From NCBI GenBank assembly GCA_965113315.1, contig OZ220366.1: 64,000 nucleotides of DNA; one strand, given 5' to 3'. Both the position numbers and the translations under genes were made by a program. This DNA comes from Podarcis vaucheri (taxonomy: Eukaryota). Below the pieces are notes generated by a model. That model saw nothing but the letters and a program-made list of their open reading frames with translations, did not search any database and was not told the DNA's origin. This document shows positions 31,341-45,639 of this stretch, one piece after another; positions within the stretch are counted from its first letter, which is position 1, and every line of letters begins with the position of its first letter.

Positions 31341-32492
31341 ATAACATGTGCTGGATTATGGAGAAAGCTAGAGAGTTCCAGAAAAACATCTACTTCTGCT
31401 TCACTGACTATATGCAAAAGCCTTTGACTGTGTCGACCATAGCAAACTATGGCAAGTTCTTAAAGAAATGGGAGTGCCTGGTCACCTCATCTGTCTCCTG
31501 AGAAATCTCTATGTGGGACAAGAAGCTACAGTTAGAACTGAATATGGAGCAATTAATTTGTTCAAAATTGGGTAAGGAGTAAGACAAGGCTGTATACTGT
31601 CTCCCTGCTTATTTAACTTATATGCAGAATTTATCATGCGAAAGGCTGGATTGGATGAATCCCAAACCGGAATTAAGATTGCCGGAAGAAACATCAACAA
31701 CCTCAGATATGCAGATGACACAACCCTGATGGCAGAAAGTGAGGAGGAATTAAAGAACCTTTTAATGAGGGTGATAGAGGAGAGCACAAAATATAGTCTG
31801 AAGCTCAACATCAAAAAAACGAAGATCATGGCCACTGGGCCCATCACCTCCTGGGAAATAGAAGGGGAAGAAATGGAGACAGTGAGAGATTTTACTTTCT
31901 TGGGCTCCATGATCACTGCAGATGGTGACAGCAGTCACAAAATTAAAAGACACATGCTTCTTGGGAGAAAAGCAATGACAAACCTAGACAGCATCTTAAA
32001 AAGCAGAGACATCACCTTGCCAACAAAGGTCCGTATAGTAAAAGCTATGGTTTTCCCAGTGGTGATGTATGGAAATGAGAGTTGGACCATAAAGAAGGCT
32101 AATCGCCGAAGAATTGATGCTTTGAATTATGGTGCTGGAGGAGACTCTTGAGAGTCCCATGGACTGCAAAAAGATCAAACCTATCCATTCTGAAGGAAAT
32201 CAGCCCTGAGTGCTCACTGGAAGGACAGATCGTGAAGCTGAGGCTCCAATACTTTGGCTACCTCATGAGAAGAGAAGACGCCCTGGAAAAGACCCTGATG
32301 TTGGGAAAGATGGAGGGCACAAGGAGAAGGGGACGACAGAGGATGAGATGGTTGGACAGTGTTCTCGAAGCTAAAAACATGAGTTTGACCAAACTGCGGG
32401 AGGCAGTGGAAGACAAGAGTGCCTGGCGTGTTCTGGTCCATGGGGTCACAAAGAGTCAGACATGACTAAACAACTAAACAACAACAACAACA
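31341..32492 (+). mobile_element. Bov-B (RTE) LINE, 5'-truncated, ~1.15 kb
   Basis: KAFDCVDH, GVRQGCILSP and NLRYADDTTL RT motifs; in-frame stop at ~31573; frameshifts near 31410 and 32122; (CAA)n tail. Confidence 0.97.
31636..32465 (+). pseudogene. Bov-B reverse transcriptase C-terminal remnant (ORFs 31636-32151 and 32148-32465)
   Basis: YADD motif; two overlapping frames joined by a frameshift. Confidence 0.9.
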
Positions 32493-36881: not shown

Positions 36882-38562
36882 TACATTTTCATGCTATGTG
36901 TTGTTTGCCTTTTCCAATCTAGGTTTTGGAGAGAACAGAGAACATGCAAAGCACCTTGGTCTGTAGCATCATTTCATTGCTGAAAAATGAGGGTCAAGCT
37001 TTGCCAGAAGTTTCTCCTCTACATGCCTCATGAACTGAAGATGCATAGCAGTGCTCTTATGCACAGGGCTGCCACAATAAATTTTGCTGCCTGAAGCAGA
37101 ATGCAAAATTCAGTATTATTGTTCCATGTGCTGGAGTGTCAAGCATTCCCAAGTAGGAGACCAGACAAATAATGTAAAAGAATGTAAGACCAGACTATTT
37201 TGCTTGCTTGCTTTGTTTTGTTTTGTTTGTTTGTTTATAAGTGCCTATCCCATTTTCCACCATTTTTTCTAAACAATTTTCTGTTGGTTGCACCTTGATC
37301 ACTGGGTCCCCCCACAATGGGCATTTTCTTACTATTTCCTACCCCCCACAGTTTTGTTATTGCTTCCAACAGGTTGATGCAGGGCCTCAGGTAAAAAGGA
37401 AAGTAGAAAACTGGGAAAATAAAGTTTTCTGATTCCTTAAAGGAATGAATGAATGAATGAATGAATGAATACCACTTAATGCCAAAACAGACTTTGAAGT
37501 GGTTAACAAGTATAACTAATTACACAAGCATTGAAATATACTGTACCATTCATAATTAAAATGCACAATAAAACAATCACATTACTACCTGCTTTGGCAG
37601 TGTCTTAAACTATTTACTCAGAAAGGTCCAATTGAAATTAATGTGTGCATTCCCCTGCCCTCAAATTGCAGCCCATATCTATACGGAATTCATATGTTTG
37701 TCTTGATATAGGCTTCATCAGTCCATTTGTTTTGTTTTGCTGCTGCAATGCTCAGATTTATATTTTTATTATTAAAAAAAATGCTTTGCTTGACTGACTG
37801 GCATGTTCCAAAATGTGCCCAAAATAGACATACTTAGATGCAACAAAGACTTTGAAAAGTAAGCAATCCATTTTATTAGTCATCACTATTTAGAGTCCAA
37901 TGGAAGTTTTGATGAAATGGTAAGCATAAGCCTACCTTAATCTTAAGAATATTACTAGGCGAATTCAAACAGATAAGCGACTTTTATCATCTCTTCCCAG
38001 AAAAGCCTGTCAAAAATGAAGAAAATAATTTCATCTTACATAAGCATATGGATTCACATTAAATGTGATATTAATGTAGCTGCTTCAAGGAGGATAGATA
38101 CAAAGCTCTGATTATGGTGGAGAGTTTAACTTGATATTAAAAATAGAGCAAATGACTTGCTCACCAAGGATTCCATTGCCAGAATGATGTAAGTAGGATG
38201 CTTTGGGGAACTTAAATATTAATATTGCAGCTGCTAACTATGATGAACAACTTGATTCAAGGAAATGTTGGGTTTTTTGTTGCTTGGTGTGTGCTTGGAA
38301 TGCTTACAAGCTCTTTGGTTTGTGCTTCATGTGAAAGCCAGCAAATAAACAGAGGCTCATTTTTTGCCTCATTACTTCTGAGAACTCTTTAAGTGAGAAA
38401 ACAAATATAAAAATCCTTTCAATGAAACAAACAAAATGTATTTCCTAGGAAGCATGGTAGCTTTGAAGGAAAGTATCTTAACAAATGCACTAATTTCTGA
38501 CATGTTGATAATAGTAAGATACACATGGAGGTCTTCCAAAATTTGAAGAGATAGTTTTAACC

Positions 38563-39167
38563 CAGAGGTTTTCAACCTTTTTGAGTCCATGGCTCCCTTG
38601 ACCAATTACATTCTTTTTGCTGCACCCTGTAGGACTCAGGAGCCCAATTATGTCACTCCTTGCCTGCAGAACTGGCAATCTCTCACCCTTTTTTGAACAC
38701 CCTTCCTTGTGGAGTGCTCCCGCTCCCTCAGCCTCCTCTCCTTTCCCATCTCCTTGGGAGACCTCTGGGCAGCCACTGCTGCCTCCCTTCTCTCTCAGCC
38801 TCCGCCCCCCCCGCCCCAAAGAGAGATATGACTCCTCACACTGCCACACAGGGGCCTGGGACTTGTCTGTCCATTCCCAACAGCAAGGGCTGATAGACTG
38901 GCTGCTTGAGCCCCCTCATCCACTTGCTTGCTTACTCCAACCTACCTCAGGTCCTGGCAACCAACATTCTCTGACCAGTCCTATAGGCACCATTCGCCTG
39001 GGGAGCTGCTGCAACAAACAGCTGTGCAAGCCTTTGGGAGGCAGAGATGCAAGAGGGCATCAGAAGAAGGGAGGGAAAGAAGGACAGAGGCCAGTATTGC
39101 CTGTGACTTGCCTGACCATCATTCTAGGCACCCCAGGGTGCCACGGCACCCTGGTTGCAAATCACTG
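38563..39167. mobile_element. Non-autonomous hAT (Charlie-like) element
   Basis: Perfect 8-bp TSD ttttaacc (38555-38562, 39168-39175); TIR cagaggttttcaacc / ggttgcaaatcactg. Confidence 0.88.
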
Positions 39168-40504
39168 TTTTAACCCATTCTGTAGTATCCCAGGTATCTT
39201 GGGGTAGAGGATTTCTTCCCTTCAAGATTCTCATTAGTGCTCTCATGTTGTTTTGCACTGCAATATTCTCCCACTGTACTCCTATTCTATTCTGGATGGG
39301 CTACTACACCTTCAACTTTCAGAAACTTCTATAATGGGTGTGGGTGTGGCCAAAATTATAGCCATATTTTGTTTGGGTTTTTTGTGGTGAGGAAGTGGAC
39401 ATGGGCCCATAATTGCCCACCCTTGGAGCCCCCCCCCAGTCTCCCCTTACACCTTGCCAAACTCATTCCTTCCAATTATAGTTCAGCAGACATGCCACCC
39501 TCCCCATTATACCACATGATATGCACCTACTCCCCTTAGAGATACCCAAGCCACCCCTCCCCACAGAGTTGTTGCTCTGTGTCTCACCTGCACTACTTGC
39601 ATCTGTCTCCCTCCTCTACTACTCAAACACCAATGTTGCTGTGTCTGCCCAGAGCTCTTAAGGAACTGCCATGCTGAGGTTTGCAGCACCACCTGTCAGA
39701 GGCCAAGCAAACTGCTGCATGGCAACATCTTTGCCTTTTTATTATATGTAAGATGGATAAAAAAGGTTATAGCATTCTATTTTGATCGCACCAATTTAAG
39801 GAGTTCTTGCTGCTGTTGATAAGAGGGGGCAAACATGTAAAAGGATAATAGATTATATGTGTCCCCCCATATATATCCCTGAAGAGCATTCACTATGTTA
39901 TTCTACTTATTCTTATGCTTATGATAACTCAGAACATTTCTAGTCCTATTTGCAAATCTAGAATGATCTTTAATGACAACCTGGTGTGTTTTGAAAATGG
40001 CCAACTCTGCTTTATGTAGAATAGGGGAAAGAAGTGTTTAGTCAGAGGGAAATATGCAAATGCTTAATGTTTCTATGTGAAAACATCTGAAATCATTCTA
40101 TTTTTTATTCATTTATCAAAATATTTCTAGACTGCCTTTAAAAAAAGAACCCTCAAGGTGGTCTACAACAATGAAATATCAATCCACTTAAAAGCATCAT
40201 ACCAGAGATAAACAAAACCACCACAAGAATAAAATACATTCGAATTTTGGCAGTCAGAGTCTAGACTGGAAAGAGAAGCTGCTGAATTGCAACTCATTAC
40301 CAAACTTAAAACAATGGAGACACCTGGTCTGAACAGAGACATTGGATTCTTATCTCATTATATATGACTAAAAGCCACTTCTCACCTTCTCACCCCTTGC
40401 CTTCTCCTGTAAGACCTACTACAGTCGTTAAGAGTCGTCAACAGGCTCATCTGCCAATCTCCGATTCCCACCACCCTTCTGAGTAATACCCCTCCCCACC
40501 TTCT

Positions 40505-40514
40505 CTATATATAG
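40505..40514 (+). promoter_or_regulatory. TATA-like box of the Penelope pseudo-LTR
   Basis: ctatatatag about 30 nt upstream of the hammerhead. Confidence 0.5.
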
Positions 40515-40540
40515 AAGGATCTGGCAACTTCTGTTTCAGT

Positions 40541-40578
40541 GTATCTGAAGAAGTGTGCATGCACACGAAAGCTTATAC
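40541..40578 (+). ncRNA. Minimal type I hammerhead ribozyme motif (PLE type)
   Basis: Stem I GUAU/AUAC; core CUGAAGA (40545-40551) plus A; palindromic stem II GUGUGCAUGCACAC; GAAA (40567-40570); loopless palindromic stem III AGCU; predicted cleavage after CUU (40574). Confidence 0.88.
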
Positions 40579-40654
40579 CAAGAACTAACTTAGTTGGTCT
40601 TTAAGGTGCTACAGGAAGGAATTTTTTTATTTTGACTATGGCAGACCAACACGG

Positions 40655-42436
40655 CTACCCATCTGTCACTGCTTTAGTGTTAATATTTGTTTGTAAAAGT
40701 TCCAGAATATCGATAATATTCCTAGTGTTATCAAACAAATGTCTACCTGGGAGAAAGCCTGCTTGGTCCTTATGAATTACTTCATTTAGTACTTTTTTGA
40801 ATCTATTTGCCAAGATATCTGCAAATATTTTGTAATCCACGTTTAGGAGTGAGATGGGACGGTAGTTCTTAAGTTGAGTCTTTTCAGTTTCCACTTTAGG
40901 TATCAGTGTGATGAATGCTTCTTTCCACGTTTCTGGTGCCCTCCCTCCCCCCATAATCTGGTTGCAAACCTCCATTAATGGTTGTATCAAGTAGTCTTTT
41001 AACATCCTGTAGTACTTGGAGGTAAGTCCATCAGGGCCTGGAGATTTGCCTAGCTGCATATTCTGAATGGCATCCTCGATTTCCTGTTGTGTTATTTTAC
41101 AATTCAAGATTGATCTCTTCTCTTGAGATAGTTCTGGTAGGCCATTGTCTTTCAAGAATTGTTCTATCTCAGTCACTTCCTCGGACCCTTGGGTGTACAG
41201 TTTTTTAAAATATTTCTGGAAGCACTTTCTAATTTCTCCCGGTTTCTGAATATTTTTCCCTTCAACTTCTAGGTTGGTAACATAATTTAATTTTTGTCTC
41301 TTTTTCAACTGCCAAGCTAGCAGTTTCCCACATTTATTCGCAGATTCAAAAGATCTTTGTTTCATTTGTTTGATTTTCCATTCCACTTCTTGGTTGATCA
41401 ATTTCGTGTATTGTGACTGGTGGAATTTAATTTCTCTTAAAGTCTCTTTTGATTTTGGATTCAATCTTAATTTTTTCTCTCCATCTCTTATCTTCTCTAA
41501 TATCTTGTCCTTTTTCCCATTCCAGAATTTTTTCTTAATCGTATTCTCTTGTATCAGAAACCCTCTCATAACAGCTTTACTTGCGTCCCAGATTATTCTT
41601 TTTTCCACCGAGGTGTTCAGGTTGATTTCAAAGTAGTCCTTTAAAGCTTTTTGGGCCTTCTTTACAATCTCTTGATCTCTTAACAGGTTGTCATTCATTT
41701 TCCATCTGAAGGAATCGGCAGTAGTAAATCTCATTTCCATTTTCAGAGCGTTGTGGTCGGAGCAGGTCTTTGGGCAGATTTCTACTCTTGTAGTCTTAGG
41801 TGCCAGCCCTCTAGTTGTCCAAATTTGGTCGATTCTTGTCCATGACAGGTGAGCCTCAGAGAAGAAAGTTCCTTCTTTACCTAAGGGGTTTCTCGTCCTC
41901 CATAGATCAATCAAATCCATATTGTCAGTTAGTTCGAAAAAAGTTTTTGGTAGTCTTCCATCCTTGGTCAGGTTCTGGTTCTGTGACTTATCCATATAGG
42001 TAGAGACCACCCCATTCATGTCTCCCATCATAATGATGTTAGAGTAGTCCAGATAGTCCAGTAATGTCTCATGAAGCTTCTTGTAGAATTCTGATTTCCC
42101 CTCATTTGGTGCATAAATTCCTAATATCAAAACTTTTTCTCCTTGGGTTTGTATTTCAATTGCCAGGATTCTTCCTTGTTCGTCTTTAAACAAAAATTTT
42201 GGTGATAGATTCTCCTTTGCGTAGATCACCACGCCTCTCTTTTTAACTCTGTCTGATGAAATAAATTCTTGGCCTAATCTTTTGTTTATTAACACTTTCC
42301 TATGGAGCCTAGTCACATGAGTTTCTTGCAGACAGATTATATCCAAATGTTCCTTCTTCAAAATATGAAAAATCCTTTTGCGTTTTTCTGGGGAATTTGC
42401 GCCATTAATATTCCAACTATACAGCTGTAGAGACAT
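40655..42436 (-). CDS. L1 ORF2p, truncated (APE endonuclease, linker, N-terminal RT), 593 aa
   Basis: SWNING, CLQETH, GDMN, RID and SDH APE motifs; KSPGPDG, YRPISLLNVDYKI and QAGF..GR RT motifs; ends before DxEKAFD and YADD; final TDG* comes from antisense Penelope sequence. Confidence 0.93.
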   Translation of the reverse strand: MSLQLYSWNINGANSPEKRKRIFHILKKEHLDIICLQETHVTRLHRKVLINKRLGQEFISSDRVKKRGVVIYAKENLSPKFLFKDEQGRILAIEIQTQGEKVLILGIYAPNEGKSEFYKKLHETLLDYLDYSNIIMMGDMNGVVSTYMDKSQNQNLTKDGRLPKTFFELTDNMDLIDLWRTRNPLGKEGTFFSEAHLSWTRIDQIWTTRGLAPKTTRVEICPKTCSDHNALKMEMRFTTADSFRWKMNDNLLRDQEIVKKAQKALKDYFEINLNTSVEKRIIWDASKAVMRGFLIQENTIKKKFWNGKKDKILEKIRDGEKKLRLNPKSKETLREIKFHQSQYTKLINQEVEWKIKQMKQRSFESANKCGKLLAWQLKKRQKLNYVTNLEVEGKNIQKPGEIRKCFQKYFKKLYTQGSEEVTEIEQFLKDNGLPELSQEKRSILNCKITQQEIEDAIQNMQLGKSPGPDGLTSKYYRMLKDYLIQPLMEVCNQIMGGGRAPETWKEAFITLIPKVETEKTQLKNYRPISLLNVDYKIFADILANRFKKVLNEVIHKDQAGFLPGRHLFDNTRNIIDILELLQTNINTKAVTDG

Positions 42437-42460
42437 CCTGTATCAATCTGTTGTTGCTCT

Positions 42461-43507
42461 TTATGGGGCGTCTTCTTTCTTGTCCAAATCCGAGGGTGCT
42501 GGCTCTTTTCCAGACTCTGGTGGAGGCCAAGGAACTGCTACTCCCTTCTGCAGGTCTTCTCCGTGGTCGTGTAGAAACTTCTGGCTGTCCTCTTTCGTTT
42601 TGATTTTAATCTTCTTTCCTTTGTAATTGAATGATAGGCCTTGTGGAAACTCCCACCTGTAAGGTATTCCGCTACTTCTCAGGAGTCCAGCTAGATCAGT
42701 ATAGTTAGATCTGAGATCCAGTAATTGTTTAGGGATATCCTTGTAAATTTCTGCTCTTCTGTCCTGGATCTCAAGTGCTTTATTGAAGTGTAGGTCAAGT
42801 AATTTGTCTCTCTCCTGCTTGGTCCTTAAGATGATCAAACAATCTCTGGGCCTGTCCTTCCTGGCGACTCTTCCCAATCTGAATGCAGTTGTTATTTTAA
42901 AGTCTGTGTCTTCCTTTATACCCCAGAATTTAGAGAATTCTGTTGTCAAAAAGCCGGTCAGATCCTCTTACTCAATCTCTGGGATGGAGCATAATCTTAA
43001 ATTATTTTCCCTGTTTCTCAGTTCCACCATAGACAGATAGGCCTGCCGGTCGCTGATATGTTTGTGTAGCGGCCTTACCTCTCCTTTCAATTCATCCACT
43101 TTCTGAATTGCTTGATCCGCTTTTTCGTTTGCAGCCTCGGCCAATTTCCGATTCTCAGATGTAGCGTCTTTTAAATTCCCAATTTCTTGTGAATGCTTAG
43201 CCACTTGTTCAGATAGTTTAGTAATTGAAGATGTAGCTAAGTCAATTTTTGCTGTTTGGTCATCAACCTTCTTATTCAAGATTGCAAATTGTTGTAGCAT
43301 TTCCTCTAGAAGGTTGCCAGTTCCCCCTGCTGCCATATCCTCAGTTGTTGGCTGCTCAGCTTCCTTGGATGGGGCTGTTGTTGAAGGTACAGCTCCCTGT
43401 AAAACAGCAGGGACCGAAGATCTGCGAGACTGGGAAATCAGAGTTGTTTGTACAAGTTGGCCTTTCCCTGCTTTCGACGCAGCTCTTGTTTTTGGAGGGC
43501 CACTCAT
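42461..43507 (-). pseudogene. L1 ORF1p (coiled coil, RRM, CTD) with a single in-frame TAA
   Basis: ORFs 43507-42968 and 42949-42461 are in the same frame (IPEIE*EDLTGFLTTEF); heptad region, RENNLRLCSIPE, AFRLG..RPRD, IYKDIP and YRWEFP motifs. Confidence 0.9.
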
Positions 43508-44189
43508 TCCACACCTGTCTTTGGATTCAAGGTCAAACTGTCAAATGTTCCATGGGAAAGACAGGCTTCAAAGTAGATTACCAAACCACAGAGAGTCAAA
43601 ACAAAGTTGGTTCTCAGGAATTTGTAAATCCCAAACTCCACTAGAGGAGTATTGATGCAGTTCAGGAAAGAAGGAAAAAAGTTTTGGTCGCCATTAAAGT
43701 TCCTGCAGCTGAATAAGTTAACAATAGTCTCTAGAAAACTTTTTTTCCACTGGCAGAGCCCCTTCAATGTTACCACAATAGTCTATCTGAAGGTGCAAGA
43801 TACAGTTGTTTAATTGTATCTTCCAATGATGCCTCTATGTATCCATTTCAATTTTATGTATGTATCCGCAAAGCAGCCCTTTTCCCCCTGCCAGCCCGGG
43901 ACTGGGTTTTTTAAAGTTTTTAGAATCCACAAAAGGAGAAGGTCTCCAAATTAAATCAACATAGTAACAGAAAGAAACAAGAAGGCTTGCCTTTCCCTTC
44001 AATTGCTAGCTCCTCCAGACGCATGATACTTCCCGTTTTAAAATCCCTTTCTATTGCTTCCAGCTTGTCTGTTCCTTTGCCTTTGATCACTAAGCACTAC
44101 CGGGAGACGGACTTCGTTTTTCTCGTCTCCCGCTTTCAGCCAAATTTCCAATTTACAGTTCCGAATTAATGCTCTTCTTACTCACGAGT

Positions 44190-44510
44190 AGGTGATTTGG
44201 AGTCCAATAGTTAAGGAAGAAAGGTCGGCGCTCATCAGCAACAGCCGCGCAGCTTCGCTCCCGCAGAAAGAGCGATGTACTCTCAGCACCGCTTCCCCTC
44301 CGCGCTTCCGGAGCCCCTTACGGGGTCCCTTCTTCGTTTTGGGGGTCGCTCCAGGTGCCCGCCGAGTCTCACGGCCACGAGCTCACTCTGCTCATGGTTT
44401 TTCTTAGTGGATCGTCGCTGTGCCGTAGCGAACGATCCTTTCCTGCGGAGCCCCTCTTCAGAGACTGAAGAGGACCGCCATTGCCCGTTTCGCGCCGCCT
44501 CCGGAAGTTC
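44190..44510 (-). promoter_or_regulatory. CpG-rich L1 internal promoter region
   Basis: Dense undecayed CpGs; ETS-like acttccgg and YY1-like aatggcgg at the 5' end. Confidence 0.6.
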
Positions 44511-45639
44511 CCAACAAGCTATTTTCTCCAGACAGTTGTGCTTTCAGGCTGGTACACTTTTCACACATTTCAAAACAATTAATTTTGATTCCACTTATAC
44601 TAACTTTTTCTACCTTTAACATTTTAATGCATACATGACATATCCTTTTCCACATAAATGCCAGAACATTATAAATAGACTCATTTTTTAAAAAAGATTA
44701 TGGTATATAAATTTGAACATAACACCAATCTATTATTTGATTCAATGGGCCTGTGGACTGACCTTCAGTTTAGATTGTGAGTGCAAAACCCAAAATACAG
44801 CTGCATTTCACCAAAGAAAAATAAGTATGATCTGCCTTAGGAAAATTTGCTGTCAGCATCACACATTCAGTCTTGCATAAAAGACCTGAGTTGATAAACC
44901 CCTAAGTCAAATTACTGAGGGAGACTTAACACAAGCAAAATATCTTGACTGTTCTAGTTGCTGATGCTACATTTATTTTCCCTTCTTACACCCTTGGTTC
45001 TTTCCCCCCTTTTTCTTTTTGCAAGAAAGTTTCATACAATTAAGTGAGTGATAAGTGGGAGGGGGGCGGACAAGTTATCTTCGGATATAAGCTACACCGA
45101 ACAAATTCCAAAAATAGTCGACATGGGGTATGAATGATGAGGCAATATAGACTAGTTTGCATCTCAATTGGCTTTGAATAAGCTTATAGGCACAGGCTAT
45201 AAACATTTCATTATAATGGTTGATTCTGTGCAAAATATGAGTCTCTTGTGAATTGAGCTGAAGAACAGAGCTGCATTAACTTAAAACTTACCTTGTGTAC
45301 TGATCATTTAAAAATTTTAAGTGTTATAGATGCAATTGCAAGGGAACACAAGACCCATGGAATGTTACGCCTTGGATAGCTTTTTAGCACAAAGACAGAA
45401 GTGGTATGTTAACCAGGGTGGAAGAAATACTGTTGTCCTCAAAGATACTTGTTTTCAGGGTAATGAATATATATTCCACAGCACTTAAAATGTTGTGCCT
45501 ATCTTCCCCCTAAATGAGTTCTTCCTACAGTGATCAATAGCAAGTCTGATTCTGTTTTACCACAAAACATATCCAAAATGTGTGTGTGTATGTAGGTATG
45601 TAGGTATGTATGTATGTATGTGCATGTATACTCCTTGCA

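Follow-up and report, generated by a model that had tools for sequence, protein, structure and literature searches.

A Penelope-like element joined to the cut 3' side of a young L1: probable loss of target DNA upon insertion

In the stretch of DNA analysed here, hereafter called the window (64 kb; G000:C18:50902001-50966000), the 3' end of a Penelope-like element (PLE) directly adjoins a young L1 at the point where the latter is cut, and this layout is confirmed as real. The explanation that we hold with considerable confidence is that of an ordinary L1 insertion followed by the insertion of the PLE, which deleted about 3.3 kb, that is, a one-off accident. What was directly observed is the anatomy of the locus, the presence of its junction at one place in the genome, the alleles lacking both elements and how much host DNA is missing; the order of the events is the part that we infer. 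In itself the locus is dead repeat debris, but it gives a clear case, measured against the empty alleles, of a Penelope element that probably removed kilobases as it inserted, as L1 does.

The two elements and their junction

The first-pass annotation had placed the start of the altered region at 40263, which proved wrong: it begins at 40237, with 25 nt of non-PLE filler (40237..40261, no strand) ahead of the PLE, and the empty alleles described below match only up to 40236. The filler could be untemplated, could derive from a fold-back or could be a piece of the deleted host DNA; it had no match in the fetched PLE or L1 copies, and a 23-nt probe taken from it occurs once in G000, at the window locus. 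The PLE that follows is a 5'-truncated copy of the Penelope/Poseidon type, 405 nt long (40262..40666, plus strand), made of the last ORF codons after the GIY-YIG core, the pLTR and the 3' tail, and from its layout it probably belongs to the Poseidon clade. Filler and PLE together account for the 430 nt that now stand where the deleted sequence was. The PLE tail has 6,154 exact matches in G000. The copy differs from L114 by one substitution in 404 nt plus a private 18-nt deletion (private change 0.25%), and from L134 by 3 differences in 389. An older age for the PLE, to which an apparent identity of 95% pointed, was rejected, since that value came from the 18-nt deletion and from subfamily differences.

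At the family level the element has the features of an EN+ PLE, with RT followed by a C-terminal GIY-YIG domain in one ORF, a tandem pLTR (L138), inverted arms (32 of 54 loci) and a tail of 30-40 nt. In the family ORF of L110 both RVT_1 (E 9e-07) and GIY-YIG (E 1.4e-04) narrowly miss the Pfam cut-offs; in L101 GIY-YIG exceeds the cut-off. The pLTR of the window copy contains a minimal hammerhead motif (40541-40578, plus strand), with a 4-bp stem I, CUGAAGA, a palindromic stem II, GAAA and a loopless stem III; core boxes and stems are those of a putative ribozyme, and 44 matches to the motif were counted across the fetched PLE loci. The description of the PLE as ribozyme-bearing holds as far as the motif in the letters is concerned, and the call is that of the motif alone, the Rfam scan having given no hammerhead match. 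The MFE fold includes stem II, and the fragment as a whole (z = 0.03) folds no better than its shuffles. As a side observation, the last position of the cleavage site (window 40571-40574) varies, being U in 31 motif matches and C in 13.

The L1 (44508-40667, minus strand) is a young copy without 2.36 kb of its 3' end. From 44511 to 40667 on the minus strand it is 98.9% identical to the full-length copy L061 (3,847 nt aligned); it differs from its nearest copy at 37 of 3,841 positions, with a private change of 0.31%. Full-length copies of the family measure about 6.2 kb and have ORFs of 348 aa and 1,246 aa and an A-rich tail, and a TSD of 15-22 nt, mostly A-rich at its start, is seen in 14 of the 18 fetched copies. 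ORF1, an ORF2 with APE and RT, the tail and the TSD of this length are at the family level those of an L1-clade LINE, a name based on the element layout and not on a tree. At least 186 L1 copies in G000 carry the sequence of the breakpoint. One full-length L1, L067 (G000:C18:85144700-85153700), shows about 108 nt inserted into its ORF2 at a later time.

By alignment of the copies, the 5' UTR of the window L1 (43508..44510, minus strand) extends to the family 5' start at 44508, which is common to 13 of the 18 fetched copies, plus 2 nt. ORF1 (42461..43507, minus strand; frame and copy comparison) carries a private premature stop at 42970-42968, and this nonsense change is one of 12 changes of the window L1 that are absent from the 18 other copies; no ORF1 exceeding 250 aa is found in the window, whereas most full-length copies have one of 348 aa. 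In ORF2 (40667..42436, minus strand; frame, Pfam and copy alignment) the frame is open from the Met for 590 L1 codons, which cover the APE endonuclease and the start of the RT, with Pfam matches to Exo_endo_phos and to the beginning of RVT_1, and then for 3 PLE-derived codons. The L1 content had been given as the extreme 5' end, ORF1 and about 590 uninterrupted ORF2 codons: the first and the last of these stand, and ORF1, although present, is broken by its private stop. The copy was also said to end just before the DxEKAFD motif, and indeed the cut falls 4 codons ahead of D-A-E-K-A-F-D, which follows in all 18 other copies. Since the RT core is missing, ORF1 has a stop and no PLE ORF is complete, the composite locus is unable to retrotranspose alone.

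On the outer side of the L1, the A-rich stretch starting 15 nt from the junction suggests that 44511..44525 (minus strand) is likely, with modest support, the remaining half of the former L1 TSD, whose partner would have been deleted; by chance alone, 633 of 9,109 window positions (7%) have an AAAA this far away. This 15-mer has 8 genomic matches, and L1 sequence lies beside that of the window only: none of the 7 other copies follows an L1 tail, and a displaced L1 3' half was not found at them.

The two elements meet at 40666/40667, so that the pLTR 3' end does adjoin the cut L1, as originally described. The junction (40667..40671, no strand) shows microhomology, in that the first 5 L1 bases agree at 4 positions with the continuation of the PLE template, which reads AACTGGAACC where the window reads CACTG, and the first L1 bases lost are an AT-rich run that includes ATT. 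The remainder of the L1 is missing beyond the PLE, again as described, the 2.36 kb having no match in the 64-kb window. The reported absence of a bracketing TSD was also verified: no repeat longer than 6 nt surrounds the whole PLE+L1 unit, and no TSD of the PLE was found in the window. The PLE ends of the family were mapped using a probe ending 146 nt ahead of the PLE end, and the 29 matches (26 loci) all ended in one of two ranges relative to 40666, -39..-28 (16 matches) or -1..+17 (13 matches). The window junction is position 0 of this distribution; in other words, the PLE meets the L1 at its natural reverse-transcription start.

Empty alleles, copy number and target-site duplications

Contigs of four of the 23 runs listed, X1, X2, X20 and X18, were compared over 38500-45500, X1 being another sample with the same organism label as X18. 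Both elements are absent in the three other samples (3/3), and between 40236 and 44511 these samples have about 890-905 bases not present in the window. In X1, a contig of 2,571 nt covers 39128-40236 and 44511-45066, the two being separated by 905 letters of other sequence (record 1, in which 40236 is base 1464 and 44511 is base 558); in X2 the flanks are joined on one contig (record 18) by 892 letters; in X20 (record 29) the match runs from 44511, there is an indel at 40227, and about 890 letters are implied by arithmetic. The empty site is therefore not the simple joining of 40260 to 44511 that had been anticipated, and a clean composite insertion is excluded, because the empty alleles hold about 0.9 kb absent here. 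Target DNA is missing with respect to the pre-insertion allele, as in an insertion-mediated deletion, and the total loss, if the L1 was full-length, would be about 3.3 kb, namely the L1 3' half plus about 0.9 kb of host DNA. The locus is recent.

The junction was present once in the genome. A 27-nt junction pattern, with 1 mismatch allowed, had 1 match in 1.6 Gb, which is the window, and among the 40 scored matches of a 221-nt junction query only that of the window spans the junction. The first-pass annotation had looked to a genome search for the junction at several loci, and its single copy speaks against a mobile composite; by the criterion of that annotation the case comes down to a deletion that happened once. 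The closest PLE copies, L114 and L134, have no L1 at their 3' ends and their flanks are unrelated, and no source locus of the composite was found in G000.

To place the missing TSD of the window PLE in its family, TSDs of at least 10 nt were scored in a sample of copies picked by similarity, not at random. In the first set 54 loci remained once 4 duplicates had been removed, together with 7 loci that extended beyond the retrieved sequence or formed complex tandems; in the second set 17 were kept, 12 of 29 being duplicates. Such TSDs were found in 36/54 and 11/17 copies, respectively, and in 2 more at a greater distance, compared with 30/2,970 in a mismatched-flank control; they are usually of 10-19 nt (49/71 copies). 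Among the 22/71 copies without a TSD of at least 10 nt, 3 show repeats of 9 nt and one is ambiguous, which leaves 25-31% as TSD-less. In the loci L093-L142 and L144-L172, inverted-arm copies keep the TSD in 26 of 32 cases (first set), and direct copies in 10 of 22 (before two reclassifications); these counts suggest that failed priming from the second nick accompanies target loss. The absence of a TSD does not prove a deletion, as two copies first scored as TSD-less, L042 and L059, were rejected from that group when the TSD was found farther away; for L109 and L100 the TSD status is ambiguous. A candidate for a second tail-to-tail deletion, L057 (G000:C28:17362973-17366387), is also ambiguous, owing to an 11-nt repeat 438 nt upstream. 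In this copy the PLE 3' end lies within a short repeat that lacks its other end, and the 11-nt repeat may be a TSD around captured DNA.

Probable insertion of the PLE with deletion of its target

In the history that we favour, a full-length L1 of 6.2 kb would have entered at 44511 by target-primed reverse transcription, with a TSD of about 15 nt, and the A-rich 5' flank, which resembles the family TSD, fits such an ordinary first insertion. Judging from the anatomy of the junction, the PLE endonuclease would then have cut ORF2 at 40667, beside the ATT/AT-rich run, and the 3' end of the L1 sense strand, with 4 nt in common with the RNA, would have primed reverse transcription at the normal PLE start. 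After 405 nt the cDNA would have been joined about 3.3 kb away, at 40236, via the 25-nt filler, and the intervening DNA, that is, 2.36 kb of L1, the TSD and about 0.9 kb of host DNA, would have been lost. The normal 3' end, the lack of a TSD and the 5' filler or microhomology are all as in insertion-mediated deletions. One of the two origins first proposed, a PLE insertion with a multi-kb target deletion, is supported by the empty alleles, by the single-copy junction and by the natural PLE end at the break. Also in line with it are the frequency of TSD-less insertions in the family and a second TSD-less copy, L101 (see below), which likewise borders an L1 relative cut internally. The ages of the elements are compatible with the L1-first order, but private changes of 0.25% for the PLE and 0.31% for the L1 cannot order them. 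About 1 Mb of L1 family in 1,615 Mb, 6,154 PLE ends and a TSD-less share of about 0.3 lead to a rough expectation in the order of one such locus per genome.

The layout is known from L1-mediated deletions, the marks of which, in the accessible part of PMC7058536, are the absence of a TSD and filler at the 5' joint. As in those cases, a short 5'-truncated retroelement bridges a kb-scale loss, the 3' junction is normal and there is no TSD, and the 25 nt at the 5' junction compare with the 1-33 nt inserted there; unlike those cases, the deletion here is ascribed to a GIY-YIG Penelope element without poly(A), with the L1 as the victim, and the event is a germline one in a reptile-like genome. The PLE family can be compared, by description, with PAc / Poseidon_Ac of Anolis carolinensis, for which the accessible part of PMC11167929 reports two RT start sites, 30-40 nt from each other, between which the tail lies (a tail likewise described in that of PMC8557442), cleavage of both strands, a preference for ATT and a ribozyme dispensable for insertion in vitro. 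Since PAc cuts both strands and does not need its ribozyme for insertion in vitro, the hammerhead likely plays no part in the L1 truncation here. The two have in common RT with a C-terminal GIY-YIG domain, a hammerhead pLTR, two RT starts and AT-rich cleavage; PAc, in what could be seen of the same source, initiates without homology and is not reported to delete its target, whereas many copies here have a few bases in common with the target at the 3' junction. In Adineta vaga, Pen2_Av also offers a TSD-less PLE in a non-LTR retrotransposon with a repair-type 5' junction, but the joining there, in the part of PMC3846280 available, is by microhomology and with no multi-kb loss, unlike the approximately 3.3 kb lost here, 0.9 kb of which was measured. 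No measured multi-kb target deletion by a PLE was found in the literature searched, which left out most subscription papers. If the 25-31% of TSD-less copies among more than 6,000 PLEs were mostly deletions, they would add to the DNA loss that is proposed, in the accessible part of PMC3787681, to wear down retroelements in reptiles.

Other possible histories

A different view of the same junction is that the reverse transcriptase of the PLE hijacks the 3' end of L1 intermediates, that PLE-L1 fusions recur and that TSD-less PLEs are a major route of DNA loss, which we regard as improbable. Its specific form for the window, a one-step co-integration in which an unfinished L1 second strand would prime the PLE RT and the product would be attached 0.9 kb away, is about equally improbable. 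None of the 3 other samples showed the intermediate allele (a full-length L1, the PLE lacking), the PLE and the L1 are equally young, and a second cut L1 bounded by a PLE exists at L101 (G000:C41:25894900-25901300); on the other hand, about one case of this kind is already expected from independent insertions, and the L1 5' flank resembles a normal TSD half. At L101 the PLE is TSD-less, and its 5' end abuts a relative of the L1 in the same orientation, 76% identical, which is cut inside ORF2 and does not resume past the PLE, so that this second PLE-bounded 3'-truncated L1 could derive from a deletion or from a template switch. The surroundings of L101 are LTR-element-like (rve match) and, judging from motifs, presumably copia-like. 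Were the co-integration true, the fusions in the window and at L101 would be instances of a cross-class product that arises repeatedly and inactivates full-length L1s at the moment of their insertion, and the TSD-less insertions of Penelope (up to 3 in 10) would make up a major route of DNA loss in the lineage.

There is similarly little probability in two independent ordinary insertions, the PLE near 40236 and the L1 at 44511, followed by a microhomology-mediated deletion. The joint does have 4 nt of microhomology, and PLE-independent deletion exists in the family: 2 of the 18 other L1 copies, L068 (G000:C41:4018000-4027000) and L070 (G000:C38:26222300-26231300), are young, with intact 5' ends, and are 3'-truncated at a PLE-free break, 74 and 204 nt past the window breakpoint, respectively, which counts against our preferred explanation. 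In L068 the sequence continues into an older, reverse-oriented L1. Large deletions have also been proposed, in the accessible part of PMC3787681, as eroding the non-LTR elements of Anolis. Yet TSD-bearing PLE insertions show microhomology at the 3' end too, and the left break of a later deletion, which could have fallen anywhere in some 1,300 nt of PLE and host DNA, would have had to lie no more than a few bases from the natural PLE end, for which we estimate a chance of about 1%. Since the break is at the natural PLE end and has microhomology and an AT-rich/ATT site, priming by the PLE is a far likelier source of the junction than a later random break, on this rough estimate.

A mis-assembly, the real allele consisting of the PLE, host DNA and a whole L1 from which about 3.3 kb was dropped, is more improbable still. 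Over 40628-40706 no contig bridging 40666/40667 is among those listed for X18, X19, X1 and X3, the first two being runs of the sample in which both outer junctions are present, and the failure of the X18 and X19 contigs to bridge this central junction could be read in its favour, but the gap proves nothing. Two loci with the same junction type, L089 and L092, are present in G000 and likewise branchless in X18 (record 12), and the missing branches would, we suppose, be compatible with short connections among high-copy repeats having been pruned, or with another individual having been sequenced. A shared 33-nt contig with a depth of 246.7 is compatible with the junction being present or absent, given 4 same-start loci in G000. 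Against a mis-assembly, both outer junctions lie on X18 contigs free of differences (records 9 and 14) and at the depth of the flank (98.9 over 39128-40291 and 88.7 over 44479-44742, flank 79.1), the false joint would have to coincide precisely with the natural PLE end and to link non-homologous sequences, and the window lies inside a 116-Mb contig.

Weakest of all is a mobile composite, that is, a PLE whose 3' extension is antisense L1, or a chimera produced by a template switch, moving in one piece as had first been proposed: the accessible part of PMC3846280 does describe host DNA moved between pLTRs by Adineta PLEs, but this reading is largely refuted by the junction present once, the lack of a source locus, the L1-free and unrelated 3' flanks of the nearest PLE copies, the absence of both TSD and poly(A) around the unit, an empty site that is not clean and a family that initiates reverse transcription at its own tail and not 3.8 kb downstream.

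The PLE pLTR (40508-40666) and the L1 5' UTR (43508-44508) of the locus are convergent, and a dsRNA of both elements is conceivable, as a matter of speculation. Elsewhere in the window, a 191-aa open frame at 31576-32151 (plus strand) resembles, and may be, a fragment of an RTE/BovB-type reverse transcriptase.
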